From NCBI GenBank assembly GCA_964513345.1, contig CAZELY010000003.1, forward strand, positions 9,371-73,370: DNA of 64,000 nt, given 5' to 3'. The notes under the pieces were generated by a model, which was not told the origin of the DNA, made no database searches, and worked only from the letters and a program-made list of their open reading frames with translations. The translations under genes were made by a program, and so were the position numbers. Within the stretch, counting starts at the first letter, position 1. Each line of letters starts with the position of its first letter. The stretch is from an uncultured Muribaculaceae bacterium (GTDB taxonomy: Bacteria; Bacillota_I; Bacilli_A; RF39; UBA660). Of this stretch, positions 9,245-62,928 are shown piece after piece.

Positions 9245-10516
9245 ATGTTTGTTGATGAAGCGATAGTAGAACTTTTCGCTGGTGATGGTGGAAATGGATG
9301 TAAAGCCTTTAGAAGAGAAAAAGGAGTTCCACTAGGAGGACCATTTGGCGGAAATGGCGGAAAGGGCTCAAGCATTATTTTTAAGGTTGACAACGGTTTA
9401 AATACGTTAGTTGATTTTCGTTATAAAAGAATAATTAAAGGTTCAAACGGTGAAAATGGGCTTGGAAAAGGCATGAATGGCAAAAATGCCGAAGATATAG
9501 TTATCATGGTTCCACCAGGGACAGTAATTACTGATCTTCATACTAAATTAATTGTTGCTGATTTAATTAAAGAAGGAGATCAAGCAGTCATCGTTGAAGG
9601 CGGCCGTGGAGGAAGAGGTAACATTGCTTTTGCTACTAAAAATAATCCGGCTCCAGATTTTGCTGAAAATGGTGAACCAGGAGAATATAGAAAAATAAAA
9701 CTTGAACTAAAATTAATTGCTGATGTTGGTTTAGTAGGACTTCCTAGTGTCGGAAAATCTACAATAATTTCTCGAGTATCCTCATCAAAACCAAAAATTG
9801 CCGACTACCCATTTACAACATTAAAACCAAATTTAGGCGTTGTAAAAGTAGAAGATGGTCGTTCATTTGTTCTTGCTGATTTACCAGGATTAATTGAAGG
9901 CGCTTCATTAGGCCATGGATTAGGTGATCAATTTTTAAAACACATTGAAAGAACTAGAATAATCGCCCATATTATTGATATGGGTGGATATACTGGAAGA
10001 GACCCTTATAAAGATTATGAAATAATCAATAATGAATTAAAAGCATTTAATGAAAAAATATTAGAAAAACCACAGATTATTATTGCTAATAAAATGGATA
10101 TGATTAATGCTGAGGAAAACTTGAAAAAGTTTAAAGAGCAAGTTGATTTACCAGTTTATAAAGTATCTGCTGTGACTGGATATGGACTACGACAAGTAAT
10201 GGCAAAACTTGCCGATATGCTAGATGAAATACCTAAAAATAATTTATATGAGGAAGAAAAATTTGAAAGCCATGTAATTTATAAATTTAAAGAAGAAAAA
10301 CCATTTACAATTACTAAGGAAAATGATGCCTGGGTTATTAAAGGAAAACAAATAGAAAAACTTCTTCGTATGAGTAGATTTGATACCAACGAAGCTATAC
10401 TTAGATTTGCTGCTAAATTAAGAAAATTAGGTATTGATGATGAGCTTAGAAAATTAGGCGCTGAAGACGGAGATACAGTCAAAATATTAGATTATGAATT
10501 TGAATTTAGTGAATAA
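9245..10516 (+). CDS. obg: GTPase Obg/CgtA
   Basis: Glycine-rich Obg fold (GDGGNG.., GGRGGRGN), G domain (GLPSVGKST, DLPGLIEGA, NKMD) and the C-terminal OCT domain. Confidence 0.95.
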   Translation: MFVDEAIVELFAGDGGNGCKAFRREKGVPLGGPFGGNGGKGSSIIFKVDNGLNTLVDFRYKRIIKGSNGENGLGKGMNGKNAEDIVIMVPPGTVITDLHTKLIVADLIKEGDQAVIVEGGRGGRGNIAFATKNNPAPDFAENGEPGEYRKIKLELKLIADVGLVGLPSVGKSTIISRVSSSKPKIADYPFTTLKPNLGVVKVEDGRSFVLADLPGLIEGASLGHGLGDQFLKHIERTRIIAHIIDMGGYTGRDPYKDYEIINNELKAFNEKILEKPQIIIANKMDMINAEENLKKFKEQVDLPVYKVSAVTGYGLRQVMAKLADMLDEIPKNNLYEEEKFESHVIYKFKEEKPFTITKENDAWVIKGKQIEKLLRMSRFDTNEAILRFAAKLRKLGIDDELRKLGAEDGDTVKILDYEFEFSE

Positions 10517-10529
10517 CTAAATTCTTTTT
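10502..10529 (+). repeat. Direct repeat copy 1 (last four obg codons, stop codon and the obg terminator hairpin)
   Basis: GAATTTAGTGAATAACTAAATTCTTTTT, with stem GAATTTAG/CTAAATTC followed by a T-run. Identical to 11766-11793. Confidence 0.95.
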
Positions 10530-10606
10530 AATGTAAAGCAGAATAATAATTGTTTGTAAAAAAAGGTGAATTATGCTATATTTAATGTAGAAAATAGGGT
10601 GATTAT

Positions 10607-11656
10607 ATGAATAAAACAAAACAAAAAAATATATTTATCATTAGCTTACTAGCTATAGTACTAATAATGGCCGTAGGCTATGCAGCTTTCGCAACAAATC
10701 TAACGGTAAATGGGACAGCAAGTATTTCATCAAATTGGTGTATAGGGTTTGATAGTACTAAAACTACAGATTATGTAGCAAGTAAAACTCATTCTACTGG
10801 AGACACACCAACAGGAAGTATTTCATTTAGTGGAAATGCATGTCAGACTAACTATAAAACAAATGCATCTTTAGTAGCTAATTTTAAACAACCAGGAGAT
10901 AAAATAGAATATACCCTAACAATAGCAAATAAAGGAAGTTTAGCAGCAGCAATAGAAAGTATCTTAGTAGATAATAATAACGTAACATCTAATCAAACAA
11001 TAACAAAAGGAAATGTAAAATATACAATAGAGATGCCATTAGATACATCATTAGCAGAAAATGAAACCACAACCATGCAAATAACAGCGGAGTTTCAAAA
11101 TGATACAAATATAAGCACCTCTAGTACAAGTACAGAAACCATAAGTGTTCAAATTAATGCCACCCAAGATGATGGTAGTGGAGGCTTCACTCCAACCCCA
11201 GCAGCGCAAACAGTATACGCAATCAATACAAGTAGTATATATAAAAACACATCAACGCTACAAGATATAGGAACAACGTATAATAGTTGTTCCGCAACAG
11301 GGAAGAATACATGTATAAGATATACTATAGAAAATGATATCGTAACAGGAGCAGAAGCTTGCTTTGTAAAAGGCGGAACTGAGTATTGCCTAAAAGGCTG
11401 GGTAGATGAGTGCTTGTATGATGGTAACGATTGTACATTTACAGGAACACAAACAGTATATAATGCCAATAAAACAACATTACAAACAGCCTTTACAGAA
11501 ACAAATGCCTGTTCTGATATTGGCTATGATTTCGGCTGCGATGCTTCCGGTTTCGATGCCAGCGCCAATAATGAGGGCGGCGTCTATGCGTACGATGGCG
11601 GCTGGAGCTGCTATGTCTATTCAGATGGCAATGCCGACTGCAGCGACAGCAGTTAG
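10607..11656 (+). CDS. Secreted protein: TasA/SipW-type leader, TasA(camelysin)-like N-domain, six-Cys C-terminal module
   Basis: The leader ..IMAVGYA|AFATNLTVNGTAS parallels TasA ..GGTWA|AFNDIKS..ASGTLDL. NFKQPGDKIEYTLTIANKGSLAAAI parallels TasA NLKPGDKLTKDFQFENNGSLAIKEV. The C-terminal Cys-rich module is shared with 52331-52933 and 61948-62928. Confidence 0.65.
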   Translation: MNKTKQKNIFIISLLAIVLIMAVGYAAFATNLTVNGTASISSNWCIGFDSTKTTDYVASKTHSTGDTPTGSISFSGNACQTNYKTNASLVANFKQPGDKIEYTLTIANKGSLAAAIESILVDNNNVTSNQTITKGNVKYTIEMPLDTSLAENETTTMQITAEFQNDTNISTSSTSTETISVQINATQDDGSGGFTPTPAAQTVYAINTSSIYKNTSTLQDIGTTYNSCSATGKNTCIRYTIENDIVTGAEACFVKGGTEYCLKGWVDECLYDGNDCTFTGTQTVYNANKTTLQTAFTETNACSDIGYDFGCDASGFDASANNEGGVYAYDGGWSCYVYSDGNADCSDSS

Positions 11657-11765
11657 TAGCCTAGTTGCGGTCCGCCCATCTTGAAATCTTGAATCCTTCA
11701 AGATAAAGGAAAGGCAAAATGTGTTTGCTATAAGCAAATTAATATAAAATAACAAAACATTTTAA

Positions 11766-11793
11766 GAATTTAGTGAATAACTAAATTCTTTTT
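11766..11793 (+). repeat. Direct repeat copy 2 (fossil obg 3' end and terminator, now terminating the cassette gene)
   Basis: Letter-for-letter identical to 10502-10529. The T-run is longer here. Confidence 0.95.
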
Positions 11794-11859
11794 TTGTCGA
11801 CTGAAAACATGTGTATATATATAAGATTATCATAGAATATATATGAAAGGAGAAATATC

Positions 11860-37279: not shown

Positions 37280-38395
37280 ATGAGAGGATTAAGAAGACAT
37301 AGAAATAGAAAACAAGTAAAAATAGTACTTTGTATGGCCATATGTTTATTAACTATCATGACAGTTGGCTATGCTGCTTTTAGTACTAATATTGGATTAA
37401 ACGCTAAGGGGAATTTGATAGAGTGCTATCAAAACAGAAAATGGGATTTTGATCATAAAAAAGAAGCTCAAGAAATTACCATTTCTTGCCCGGGAGTTTA
37501 TCTGTTTGAGCTGTGGGGCGCAGGAAACAATTATTCTGGCGGTGGTTATACTTCTGGTAAAATAAGCTTGCAAAGAAATGACAAATTTTATCTATATGTT
37601 GGTGAACAAGGCCATGATAATAACAGTGATACAATTGGGGGATGGAATGGTGGTGGCAACACCATTGCGACAACACAGGGTAAATCTGGAATGACTGGTA
37701 GTGGTTCAACTGATGTAAGGACAGTATCAGGTGACTGGGATAATTTTAATTCTTTAAAGTCAAGAATTATGGTTGCTGGAGGCGCTGGAGGAGTAGGAGG
37801 CGCAAACCAAGGTGCCAATGGTGGCGGCTTGGTTGGTTATGATGGATCCTCTACTAATACAGATTATTTAATTTATTTAGGTAAAGGTGGTACCCAAACA
37901 GCCGGAGGCGCTGCACCTACCAAATATGATGCTGCTCAATCTAATGGCACACCTGGTTTGTTTGGTAAAGGTGGCACCGGTGGCGCAAGTCGCGATGATA
38001 CTTCGACCGGTGGTGGCGGAGCTGGTGGTGGCGGCTACTTTGGTGGTTCAGGAGCCAGTGGACTTTCCAATGGCACGTTTGCTGCTGGTGGTGGATCATC
38101 ATTTATATCAGGGCATGTTGGTTGTATAGCTATTGATCAAAATTCTACTGAAAGTAATATTCAGCAAAGAAAAGGAACAAATAATGCAACTTGTGTAGAT
38201 AATTCCACTGATGTATTATGTTCACGTCATTATTCAAATTATATATTTACCGAAACTGAGATAATTGATGGTAAAGGTTATGGATGGACAAACAATATTG
38301 GAAGTTATGAAGGTCAACCACAACCAGATAGTACTATTGCTGCTGGACATATTGGTAATGGCCACGCTAGAATAACATTGATCTCACTTAATTAA
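37280..38395 (+). CDS. Secreted glycine-rich-domain protein with a TasA/SipW-type leader
   Basis: Leader ..TIMTVGYA|AFSTNIGLNAKGN. The body reads CPGVYLFELWGAG..GGGYTSG..LYVGEQG..GGWNGGG..GSGSTDVR..IMVAGGAGGVGG..GGGGAGGGGYFGGSGA..GGGSSFI, which resembles the bacterial 'glycine rich protein' family related to the ALK/LTK glycine-rich domain. Confidence 0.6.
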   Translation: MRGLRRHRNRKQVKIVLCMAICLLTIMTVGYAAFSTNIGLNAKGNLIECYQNRKWDFDHKKEAQEITISCPGVYLFELWGAGNNYSGGGYTSGKISLQRNDKFYLYVGEQGHDNNSDTIGGWNGGGNTIATTQGKSGMTGSGSTDVRTVSGDWDNFNSLKSRIMVAGGAGGVGGANQGANGGGLVGYDGSSTNTDYLIYLGKGGTQTAGGAAPTKYDAAQSNGTPGLFGKGGTGGASRDDTSTGGGGAGGGGYFGGSGASGLSNGTFAAGGGSSFISGHVGCIAIDQNSTESNIQQRKGTNNATCVDNSTDVLCSRHYSNYIFTETEIIDGKGYGWTNNIGSYEGQPQPDSTIAAGHIGNGHARITLISLN

Positions 38396-61879: not shown

Positions 61880-61898
61880 GTGTCAACCTACTTTTTTT
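61874..61898 (+). terminator. Terminator after tmk
   Basis: AAGTAGGT-gtca-ACCTACTT followed by T7. Confidence 0.8.
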
Positions 61899-61947
61899 GT
61901 TGTTGAAAATAAATAAAAAATCGATTATAATTAAAATGGGTGAGAGC

Positions 61948-62928
61948 ATGAGTAAAAAAGGGTTTACGTTAATCGAATTACTTGTTGTAATTGTTATACT
62001 TGCAATTATTGCTTTAGTAGCTGTCCCGGTGATAATTGGTGTCATTAATAGTTCCAAAGAAAAAGCATATCAGGAACAGGAAAGAGCTATTGTCACAGCA
62101 GCTAGAAATTATATTGCTAAAAATTCAAAAGAAATGCCAACAATGAAAGGTGCAAGTAAATGTATACCGGTTGAAACTTTAAAAAACGCTGGATTATTAA
62201 AAGATCAGACAATTCAAAATCCAGTTGGAGTTAATTATAAAGATTACACCGAAAAAGATGACAATTTTAACGGCGGTGTTTTAGTTGAAAATAATAACAA
62301 CAATTATACATATAATTATGTTGATGACTGCTCAACTATAACATTTACTGGAACGATATATAGAAATAATCAAGTTGGAGCAGGCATTGGAAGTTCGATA
62401 ATACCAGTAAGTGGGACTAAGTACGTTATAACTAACGGCGAGTATGTTGCCCCAGTTGGCCCATATAATAGTCAAAATGAATGCCAAACGGCATTAACAG
62501 AACATGGGGCCCCCGAAGAATTTTATTGTGAAAAACAAACTGGAACATTTGGGGGAATCGGTGAATACACAAAAGATGCTTCAGGTTTGAATAAAAAACA
62601 TTATTTAAAACACGAAGTAGTAGACAATATAATAACTGCATCATATGCATGTTTTGTAACGGACAAAGAATATTGTATGCAAGGGGGAAATGCATCTTAT
62701 TATGCTGCCAACCAAGCAATATTACAAAGCCAAGATGCGTGGTTTAATAACAGCGATGGTTACTGCTATATTGAATCTGAATTTTCAGGTTGTTACAGTT
62801 ATAATAAATATAATATTGGTGCAAATTCATATGGTGAGGTTTATACTAGATCATCTGACATTCTTGGATGTATAGTGGAGAAAGATGGCTTTTCCCACTG
62901 TAATAAAAGAGAAGAATCGGCTATGTAG
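61948..62928 (+). CDS. Type IV pilin-like protein carrying the six-Cys C-terminal module
   Basis: MSKKG|FTLIELLVVIVILAIIALVAVPVI, a pilin-type Cys pair (KC..DC) and a LKNAGLL motif. These are followed by an extra roughly 190-aa region ending in ACFVTDKEYCMQGGN..C-x8-C-x25-C-x9-C. Confidence 0.8.
   Translation: MSKKGFTLIELLVVIVILAIIALVAVPVIIGVINSSKEKAYQEQERAIVTAARNYIAKNSKEMPTMKGASKCIPVETLKNAGLLKDQTIQNPVGVNYKDYTEKDDNFNGGVLVENNNNNYTYNYVDDCSTITFTGTIYRNNQVGAGIGSSIIPVSGTKYVITNGEYVAPVGPYNSQNECQTALTEHGAPEEFYCEKQTGTFGGIGEYTKDASGLNKKHYLKHEVVDNIITASYACFVTDKEYCMQGGNASYYAANQAILQSQDAWFNNSDGYCYIESEFSGCYSYNKYNIGANSYGEVYTRSSDILGCIVEKDGFSHCNKREESAM

Follow-up and report, generated by a model that had tools for sequence, protein, structure and literature searches.

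Diversity-generating retroelements (DGRs) are, to our knowledge, the only known natural means of targeted protein hypermutation outside adaptive immunity. A gene with a GC-rich 3' tail that resembles the target of such an element was analysed in a 64,000-nt stretch of contig CAZELY010000003.1 (assembly GCA_964513345.1); this stretch is called the window throughout, all coordinates are positions in it unless a contig or locus is named, and the assembly to which it belongs is an 886-kb metagenome bin of 31 contigs that is 84% complete. In the DGR of Bordetella phage BPP-1 (mtd, avd-TR-brt; Guo et al. 2011, PMC3240598) the variable region (VR) lies at the extreme 3' end of the target open reading frame (ORF), a GC-rich initiation of mutagenic homology (IMH) is common to the VR and the template repeat (TR) except at its end, and a hairpin just 3' of the VR, with a 7–10-bp GC-rich stem and a 4-nt GRNA loop, is required. 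DGRs, remote targets and orphan VRs are already known (Wu et al. 2018, PMC5758913), and VRs have been reported systematically on C-type-lectin folds (Roux et al. 2021, PMC8144416). The window gene is very probably a DGR target, with the GC-rich tail as its VR and the sequence behind the tail as the target-site flank. The VR is orphaned at this locus and was presumably written by an element of the kind described below for other genomes of the genus.

Like the BPP-1 target, the window gene carries its VR at the extreme 3' end of the ORF, followed by a GC-rich IMH that in the family is common to the TR except at its end, and by a VR-specific inverted repeat just downstream; its congeners have Avd and a reverse transcriptase (RT) whose closest relative of solved structure is the BPP-1 enzyme bRT (8ub7), together with adenine-specific differences between TR and VR. 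Unlike BPP-1, the window locus is without TR, Avd and RT, its hairpin has an AT-rich stem and a loop of 3 nt and is preceded or overlapped by a tandem ATCT-N4-ATCT motif, the host is the chromosome of a small-genome rumen and gut lineage of Bacilli and not a phage, and the VR domain, as judged from a predicted model, does not have the C-type lectin fold. By the mechanism that is established for DGRs generally, and that presumably holds for the window locus, a dedicated RT would, with Avd, copy a non-coding TR RNA and misincorporate opposite template adenines; the cDNA would take the place of the VR, with the GC-rich IMH setting its 3' limit, and VR-specific flanking DNA, in the window the ATCT tandem motif and the hairpin, would aid the replacement. 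The outcome would be a never-changing scaffold, encoded by codons without A (Cys, Gly, Ala, Val, Phe, Trp and Ser), with randomised AAY-type codons in between. The protein is secreted to the surface and probably forms fibres, and the randomisation would diversify a single face of the small, disulfide-rich beta module at its C-terminus. The features of the locus are collected in Table 1. Congeneric genomes are denoted by G-numbers (G001, G004, G016, G050, G066 and G077), contigs by C-numbers and compared loci or alleles by L-numbers; L029 is G004:C13, L044 is G050:C78, L046 is G001:C30, L048 is the JGI contig AUXO013756206.1 and L054 is contig k141_47399.

Table 1. Features of the target gene and its 3' flank in the window.
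Feature	Positions	Strand	Description and basis
Target gene, 349 amino acids	10607..11656	+	ORF; no Pfam or NCBIfam family; AlphaFold2 (AF2) model
VR of the probable DGR target	11519..11658 (about)	+	A-depleted, 55–57% GC, extends through the stop codon; allele and TR comparisons
IMH-like GC-rich stretch TAGCCTAGTTGCGGTCCGCCC	11657..11677	+	Last sequence common to VR and TR; 0–1 allele difference
Tandem motif ATCTTGAA ATCTTGAA TC	11678..11695	+	Local form of the genus consensus ATCT-N4-ATCT-N4-TC; VR-specific
Hairpin ATCTTGAA-TCC-TTCAAGAT	11686..11704	+	8-bp AT-rich stem, 3-nt loop; seen in the sequence
GGCAAAATG, surviving right arm of the usual post-VR hairpin of the family	11713..11721	+	Comparison with G050, G001, G066 and G077
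Junction	11739..11765	+	L054 continues into a TR cassette, the window runs into the second obg-terminator repeat; alignment with L054 and L024
28-nt direct repeat, second copy	11766..11793	+	Stem GAATTTAG/CTAAATTC, then T-run

The target protein consists of an N-terminal signal or transmembrane hydrophobic helix, a beta-sandwich domain and a C-terminal cysteine-rich (six-Cys) module that ends in ..GCDASGFDASANNEGGVYAYDGGWSCYVYSDGNADCSDSS*, and is a secreted surface protein that probably forms fibres. Searches of Pfam and NCBIfam with it gave no family. It belongs to a large paralogous family with homologues in all 24 of the 24 congeneric genomes and in 0 of the 16 other genera searched, so that the family is restricted to the genus; the congeners are rumen and gut metagenome bins of ~1–1.5 Mb (with labels such as RUG357 and RUG12855). 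Relatives with 82–93% protein identity were near-identical as far as ..TETNACSD, after which differences were scattered through a tail with the fixed scaffold F.C..SG.....G.V.A...W.C.V.S.G.A.C. When the window gene was compared with allele L023, the body showed 44/914 differences, 27 of them at codon position 3, the tail 21/133, of which 20 were at codon positions 1–2, and the 38 nt past the stop a single difference; for allele L024 the counts were 66/890 in the body (37 at position 3), 27/133 in the tail (24 at positions 1–2) and none in the 38 nt past the stop. Over four alleles 40 of the 135 tail sites were variable, 35 of these 40 at codon positions 1–2, and A stood in only five of the 95 invariant columns. 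The gene body thus shows ordinary third-position divergence between alleles and, as in DGR targets, the remaining variation is confined to a short 3' tract at adenine-templated sites; hypervariability restricted to this tract had been named as a check in the original prediction, which was made from the sequence of the window alone, and was found.

Agreement with template adenines was assessed against TRs from sister species, all of which are heterologous to the window gene. Adenines of the G050 TR stood under 28 of the 40 variable sites and under 11 of the 95 invariant sites (Fisher p = 3e-11), and the TRs of G001 (p = 9e-10) and L048 (p = 1e-10) gave similar results; the scaffold codons (Cys, Gly, Ala, Val, Phe, Trp and Ser) correspond exactly to those codons of the TRs that contain no A. 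The template predicted for the window VR starts GCATGTTCTGATAATGACTATAATTTCAGCTGCAATGCATCCGGTTTCAATGCCAAC... Diversifying selection and gene conversion among paralogous six-Cys modules, with no retroelement and with the GC content owed to GC-biased repair at a recombination hot spot, is an unlikely source of this pattern: the family is highly paralogous, recombination is active (strains with 99% identity over the rest of the sequence carry the whole cassette at differing loci) and the assembly to which the window belongs has neither TR nor RT, but neither conversion nor selection predicts the bias towards codon positions 1–2 or the match to adenines in the TRs of other species (p = 3e-11). Moreover, there is no donor paralogue, since the only other copy in the genome is 54–62% identical in the tail, and the homologous tails demonstrably have TR, Avd and RT partners.

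These partners were found by searching the genus with the tail by BLAST, which gave weak matches that turned out to be TRs or VRs of homologous genes. On G050:C11 the TR, a non-coding copy with many AAC and AAT triplets, lies 340 nt downstream of a homologous gene, and 22 of the 25 mismatches between TR and VR over 137 nt lie at TR adenines. One TR and three VRs on three contigs are present in G001, with 19–20 of 24–29 mismatches at A, and G004:C13 holds a further TR/VR pair that is cognate mainly in the 3' part. On a single contig of G077 (C80) the target, VR, IMH, ATCT motif, hairpin, TR with its own copy of the IMH (IMH*), Avd and RT all occur, with 25 mismatches at TR adenines; the best solved relative of this RT is the BPP-1 bRT (8ub7, E = 1e-20), and RT genes are present in 44 of 61 congeneric genomes. 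Homologous VRs thus have TR partners and are linked to Avd and an RT, and the idea of a template repeat and a reverse transcriptase in the original prediction was borne out in sister species, where adenine-specific TRs, Avd and RT exist for the six-Cys module. The arrangement resembles that of the Treponema denticola DGR (TvpA and remote targets) and of other remote-target systems (Wu et al. 2018, PMC5758913), in which one element serves scattered VR genes, as in G001, and a target needs to carry no more than the VR with the recognition flank 3' of it. In those systems, however, the TR stays beside the RT, whereas here the six-Cys TR cassettes, which share the upstream motif ATGTTTTTATAGGGWTATYCTGWTTAAGG, adjoin target genes and may be far from any RT (G050, G004 and G077:C8), and for the window no element is known.

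The composition of the tail agrees with this reading. Between 11521 and 11680, 91 of the 160 nt are G or C (56.9%), exactly the count given in the original prediction; the 60 nt just upstream (11461–11520) contain 19 G/C, where 22 had been counted in a trivial slip, and the genome-wide value, put at about 30% by eye, was measured as 29.9% (29.2% for the window). A GC content of at least 50% over 160 nt is reached by only 19 regions of the 886-kb assembly, and the switch does fall within the ORF, as had been claimed. The GC fraction at third codon positions (GC3) is 0.64 in the tail versus 0.18 in the body, by which an origin in amino-acid composition alone was ruled out. The content of A is 19% in the tail versus 42% in the gene body while T is unchanged at 25%, and the share of A at third codon positions is 49% for the body, 2% for the VR and 2–7% for the TRs; the drop in third-position A with T held steady indicates a depletion of adenine and not a general shift in GC. 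In G050 the TR is 44% GC and 29% A and its VR 53% GC and 13% A, to be compared with 55% GC and 17% A for the window VR. Relative to TRs, VRs lose about three quarters of their As at the randomised positions, and in the TRs A is avoided at all positions that encode constant parts of the protein, third positions included. The 57% GC of the tail would therefore arise because A is kept out of the template scaffold and third positions and is lost by mutation at the variable ones. For annotation, a 3' tail that abruptly turns A-poor and GC-rich in an otherwise AT-rich genome is a practical flag for orphan DGR targets, also where no RT lies nearby.

The tail had originally been described as compositionally foreign, a mosaic or gene-conversion tract for which a higher-GC donor lineage was to be sought. 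Read literally, this means a tract gained by recombination or horizontal transfer from such a donor, and the abrupt switch inside the ORF, synonymous positions included, is what such a tract would give. This origin is very unlikely, because no donor-like match was found in phage, plasmid, viral and metagenome collections, because the depletion is specific to A with T staying at 25%, because the flanks are native on both sides and because the tails of orthologues and paralogues throughout the genus, and the TRs that belong to them, show the same switch, all congeners sharing the A-depleted tail; adenine avoidance and mutagenesis explain the composition. The homology of the tail to the six-Cys module was upheld, yet the tail would have been written by a separate, template-directed process. 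A chimera of assembly or binning that joined foreign reads to the 3' end of the gene, conceivable in a 31-contig, 84%-complete metagenome bin, has practically no probability and is refuted by the recurrence of this protein and its DNA in three or more other assemblies made independently (0–1 differences over the 4-kb locus in two of them) and by the retention of the reading frame and of the family cysteine scaffold in the tail.

The 3' flank was compared in the same set of loci. In G077 the IMH flanks are TAGCGTCAGCCCAGCC for the VR and ..CCCAGCA for the TR, and in G001 they are ..GGCGCCCGC (VR) and ..GGCGCCCAC (TR); in both genomes VR and TR flanks are identical through the GC-rich stretch, differ in one base at its end and share nothing beyond that point. 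For the TR of L048 the 3' flank is GTAGCCTGTGCCCGCC. The window stretch that aligns with these sequences is near-invariant among alleles, as expected of the IMH of a DGR target, and the cognate IMH* was not seen. Beyond it, the consensus ATCT-N4-ATCT-N4-TC occurs at the same place after the VR at 11 loci in seven species and was not found after the TRs of the family at the compared loci, and the homology between the window and cassette copies in other genomic contexts stops directly past this motif. By itself the motif is expected 0.3 times per window, and the weight given to the post-VR structure rests on its conservation at the same place in other species and not on the structure alone.

The tandem and inverted structure after the stop codon was confirmed as ATCTTGAA-ATCTTGAA-TCC-TTCAAGAT at 11678–11704, with no T-run; an intrinsic terminator was rejected for the hairpin on this ground, and the terminator of the target gene is probably the second copy of the obg-terminator repeat (~11766–11797). 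The hairpin is a candidate counterpart of the hairpin or cruciform of DGR targets. Its stability is unremarkable (z = -1.6, with 16 of 200 shuffled sequences folding equally well), and it is retained in allele L054 and has a 7-bp variant in L024. Most other species have a different post-VR hairpin, ATTTTGCC-NNN-GGCAAAAT, of which the window has lost the left arm by replacement; what is conserved is the tandem ATCT motif and some hairpin after it, the inverted arm TTCAAGAT being lineage-specific. The proposal that the structure is a recombination or recognition site is therefore plausible as regards the VR-specific flank, which is shared by seven species, and is not supported as regards the particular inverted arm. 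The ATCT motif and the hairpin may act in target recognition.

Several observations weigh against the reading of this locus as a DGR target. The original prediction had asked for a second copy of the tail and for a reverse transcriptase in the genome, and neither is in the assembly. In this 84%-complete assembly no match was obtained to RVT_1 or, by tblastn and HMMER, to the RTs of G050 and G009; tblastn with the Avd and MutS-like (MSL) proteins of G050 and G009 gave E > 0.3 throughout; and neither BLAST at word size 7 nor an all-against-all search for repeat pairs with a bias to A or T found a second VR copy or a TR. RT, TR and accessory protein, which together in one genome make a complete DGR, were thus all missing from it. 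A cognate TR was also sought in 65 congeners, where BLAST with the tail gave only matches of 66–68% (heterologous TRs and VRs), and in metagenome and viral contigs, where a degenerate VR/TR pattern had 0 matches. The TR start that is visible beside L054 is not cognate to the 5' part of that VR; the hairpin, with an AT-rich stem of 8 bp and the 3-nt loop TCC, is not of the BPP-1 type; and G004, G016 and G066 have such TRs yet no detectable RT in bins that are 63–89% complete. The VR is identical in four assemblies of this clone, so that ongoing variation is not demonstrated; the contigs of these four assemblies are essentially identical throughout, which shows that the clone is stable over the sampled material. 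The samples with this clone and its sister strains are ERZ28018901, ERZ28654662, ERZ28654821, ERZ28654795 and ERZ27234821. The only TR candidate in the genome, a 57-nt AT-rich repeat pair on C24 and C6, was taken as a chance occurrence. Upstream of thiI, which is the site of the RT core in G050, the genome has ezrA-like genes instead.

The loss of a TR cassette from the locus was deduced from the sister allele L054, which shares the window flank to ~11738 and then has a TR cassette ~60–170 nt downstream, consisting of the conserved upstream hairpins, ..ATGTTTTTATAGGGTTATCCTGATTACGG and the start of the TR, at which the contig ends. In L024, as in the window, the flank is continued at this point by the 28-nt obg-terminator repeat, in its second copy; as L054 has a TR cassette where the window and L024 have the repeat, the cassette was lost here. 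An element in the 16% of the genome that is missing from the assembly might still rewrite the VR in trans. The first copy of the 28-nt repeat (10502–10529) comprises the stop codon and terminator of obg, and the gene cassette (~10530–11695) is bracketed by perfect copies of this stop and terminator repeat. In a sister strain that is 99.2–99.9% identical elsewhere, a 93%-identical cassette (L053 9877–11119) lies between alaS and a P-type ATPase gene; the corresponding site in the genome analysed here (C9:34625–34644) is empty and has a different alaS terminator. The placement of the cassette differs between strains, which makes it a presence/absence or relocating unit.

The fold of the diversified module was examined in AF2 models, for which the predicted local distance difference test score (pLDDT) was 88.8 over the whole target protein and 94.8, with a predicted template-modelling score (pTM) of 0.88, over residues 196–349. 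The module is mostly beta with one helix; the modelled VR forms six short beta strands in which variable and invariant residues alternate, with conserved cysteines. Foldseek searches with the module against PDB and BFVD gave nothing at E <= 0.001 and a best template-modelling (TM) score of <= 0.30, a negative result that, being obtained with a predicted model, is not proof, and the whole protein likewise gave no significant match in either database; neither Mtd, TvpA nor any other lectin-fold variable protein of a DGR was among the top 50, and a profile search of PDB sequences and a Pfam search with the module gave no match. Like the C-type-lectin-fold proteins Mtd, TvpA, AvpA and TaqVP (PMC8144416), the window protein has a C-terminal VR of ~45 residues made up of invariant scaffold positions interspersed with randomised codons of the Asn type, and it is surface-exposed and presumably ligand-binding. 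It differs from them in its conserved cysteines, in its mostly beta structure with one helix and in the lack of any PDB, BFVD or Pfam match. The predicted model did not show a C-type-lectin fold for the VR, and with moderate confidence the six-Cys module is considered to be a non-lectin scaffold.

A cysteine-rich fold is not known to have been linked to DGRs before, and a literature search returned no DGR paper using the term cysteine-rich. What appears to be new is this cysteine-rich, apparently non-lectin scaffold, the conserved ATCT tandem flank and the location of TR cassettes next to targets and away from the RT core. Tentatively, and with rather less than even confidence in the whole, these may be joined in a reading in which the six-Cys module is a second, non-C-type-lectin scaffold of DGRs, carried on different surface fibres (TasA-like subunits and type IV pilins) of rumen and gut Bacilli with small genomes, with its own recognition signal (ATCT-N4-ATCT-N4-TC and an AT-rich hairpin with a 3-nt loop) and with free-standing TR cassettes whose gain and loss are not tied to the RT-Avd core, so that targets switch between 'evolvable' and 'frozen' states. 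If true, this would widen the set of scaffolds that tolerate massive variation, which is of use in binder engineering, would provide a new target-site signal for testing and would describe a route by which small-genome gut and rumen bacteria diversify adhesins at fibre tips.

The RT cores of the genus vary in their composition. The core of G050 (L044 1–2502), which consists of a MutS_I-like protein, bAvd and RT, has the accessory set of the MSL-containing DGRs ('Architecture D', Wu et al. 2018). Unlike those DGRs, it has its own classical '..AVRP..' TR, with the end of the matching VR, and the six-Cys TR is on another contig, giving two template types in one ~1-Mb genome; again unlike them, the dedicated six-Cys element of G077 is TR-Avd-RT without MSL. 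G077 contains five DGR-type RT genes (on C10, C41, C52, C80 and C107) that are 47–64% identical to the G050 RT, an unusually high density of DGRs for a genome of ~1 Mb that is 94% complete. The spacer downstream of the TR is conserved among L048 (457–1762), G004 (L029 1617–2470) and G077 and has different neighbours behind it, in L048 a short ORF resembling Avd and a gene of the RhuM/Fic type, in G004 a terminator and gyrB; from these differing neighbours it follows that the Avd-RT part has been repeatedly lost or replaced. On the reverse strand of L046 (~374–508) a VR-like, A-mutated copy ends an ORF of 174 amino acids and is followed by a TR-type spacer (..CCCACTAGATTTTCC..) and not by the VR-type ATCT flank; this copy is a VR/TR hybrid and is perhaps recombinant.

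The six-Cys module also occurs elsewhere in the genome. A type IV prepilin with a GFTLIELL leader (61897–62928, plus strand) has the same module at its C-terminal end, in ordinary AT-rich codons and with Lys, Glu and Met where the DGR-written copies vary; it is an undiversified version of the scaffold on another fibre. A paralogue outside the window (C9:18838–19839, minus strand) is 75% identical to the target protein at the amino-acid level and has an A-poor tail of ~50% GC in which only 3–4 of 50 residues differ between strains; in its post-stop flank the ATCT tandem is short by 10 nt, with CTTGAAATTCAAGAT left, and the gene could be a natural case of a VR frozen through damage to its target flank.

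A Foldseek search of PDB and BFVD with the AF2 model of the N-terminal domain (10607–11190) gave only weak likenesses to beta-sandwiches of the adaptin-ear, AAP and TasA types and nothing significant, the AAP pilus subunit of Sulfolobus (8q30, prob 0.92) and the TasA fibre (8aur) being among them. The genus carries tandem arrays of paralogues of ~190 amino acids, and these arrays together with the weak likenesses hint at donor-strand-exchange fibres. The sole other patch of ~50% GC in the window (37860–38151) lies in a plus-strand gene at 37280–38395 for a glycine-rich secreted protein with the same type of leader as the target protein (..TVGYAAFSTN..), and its GC content is explained by amino-acid composition.

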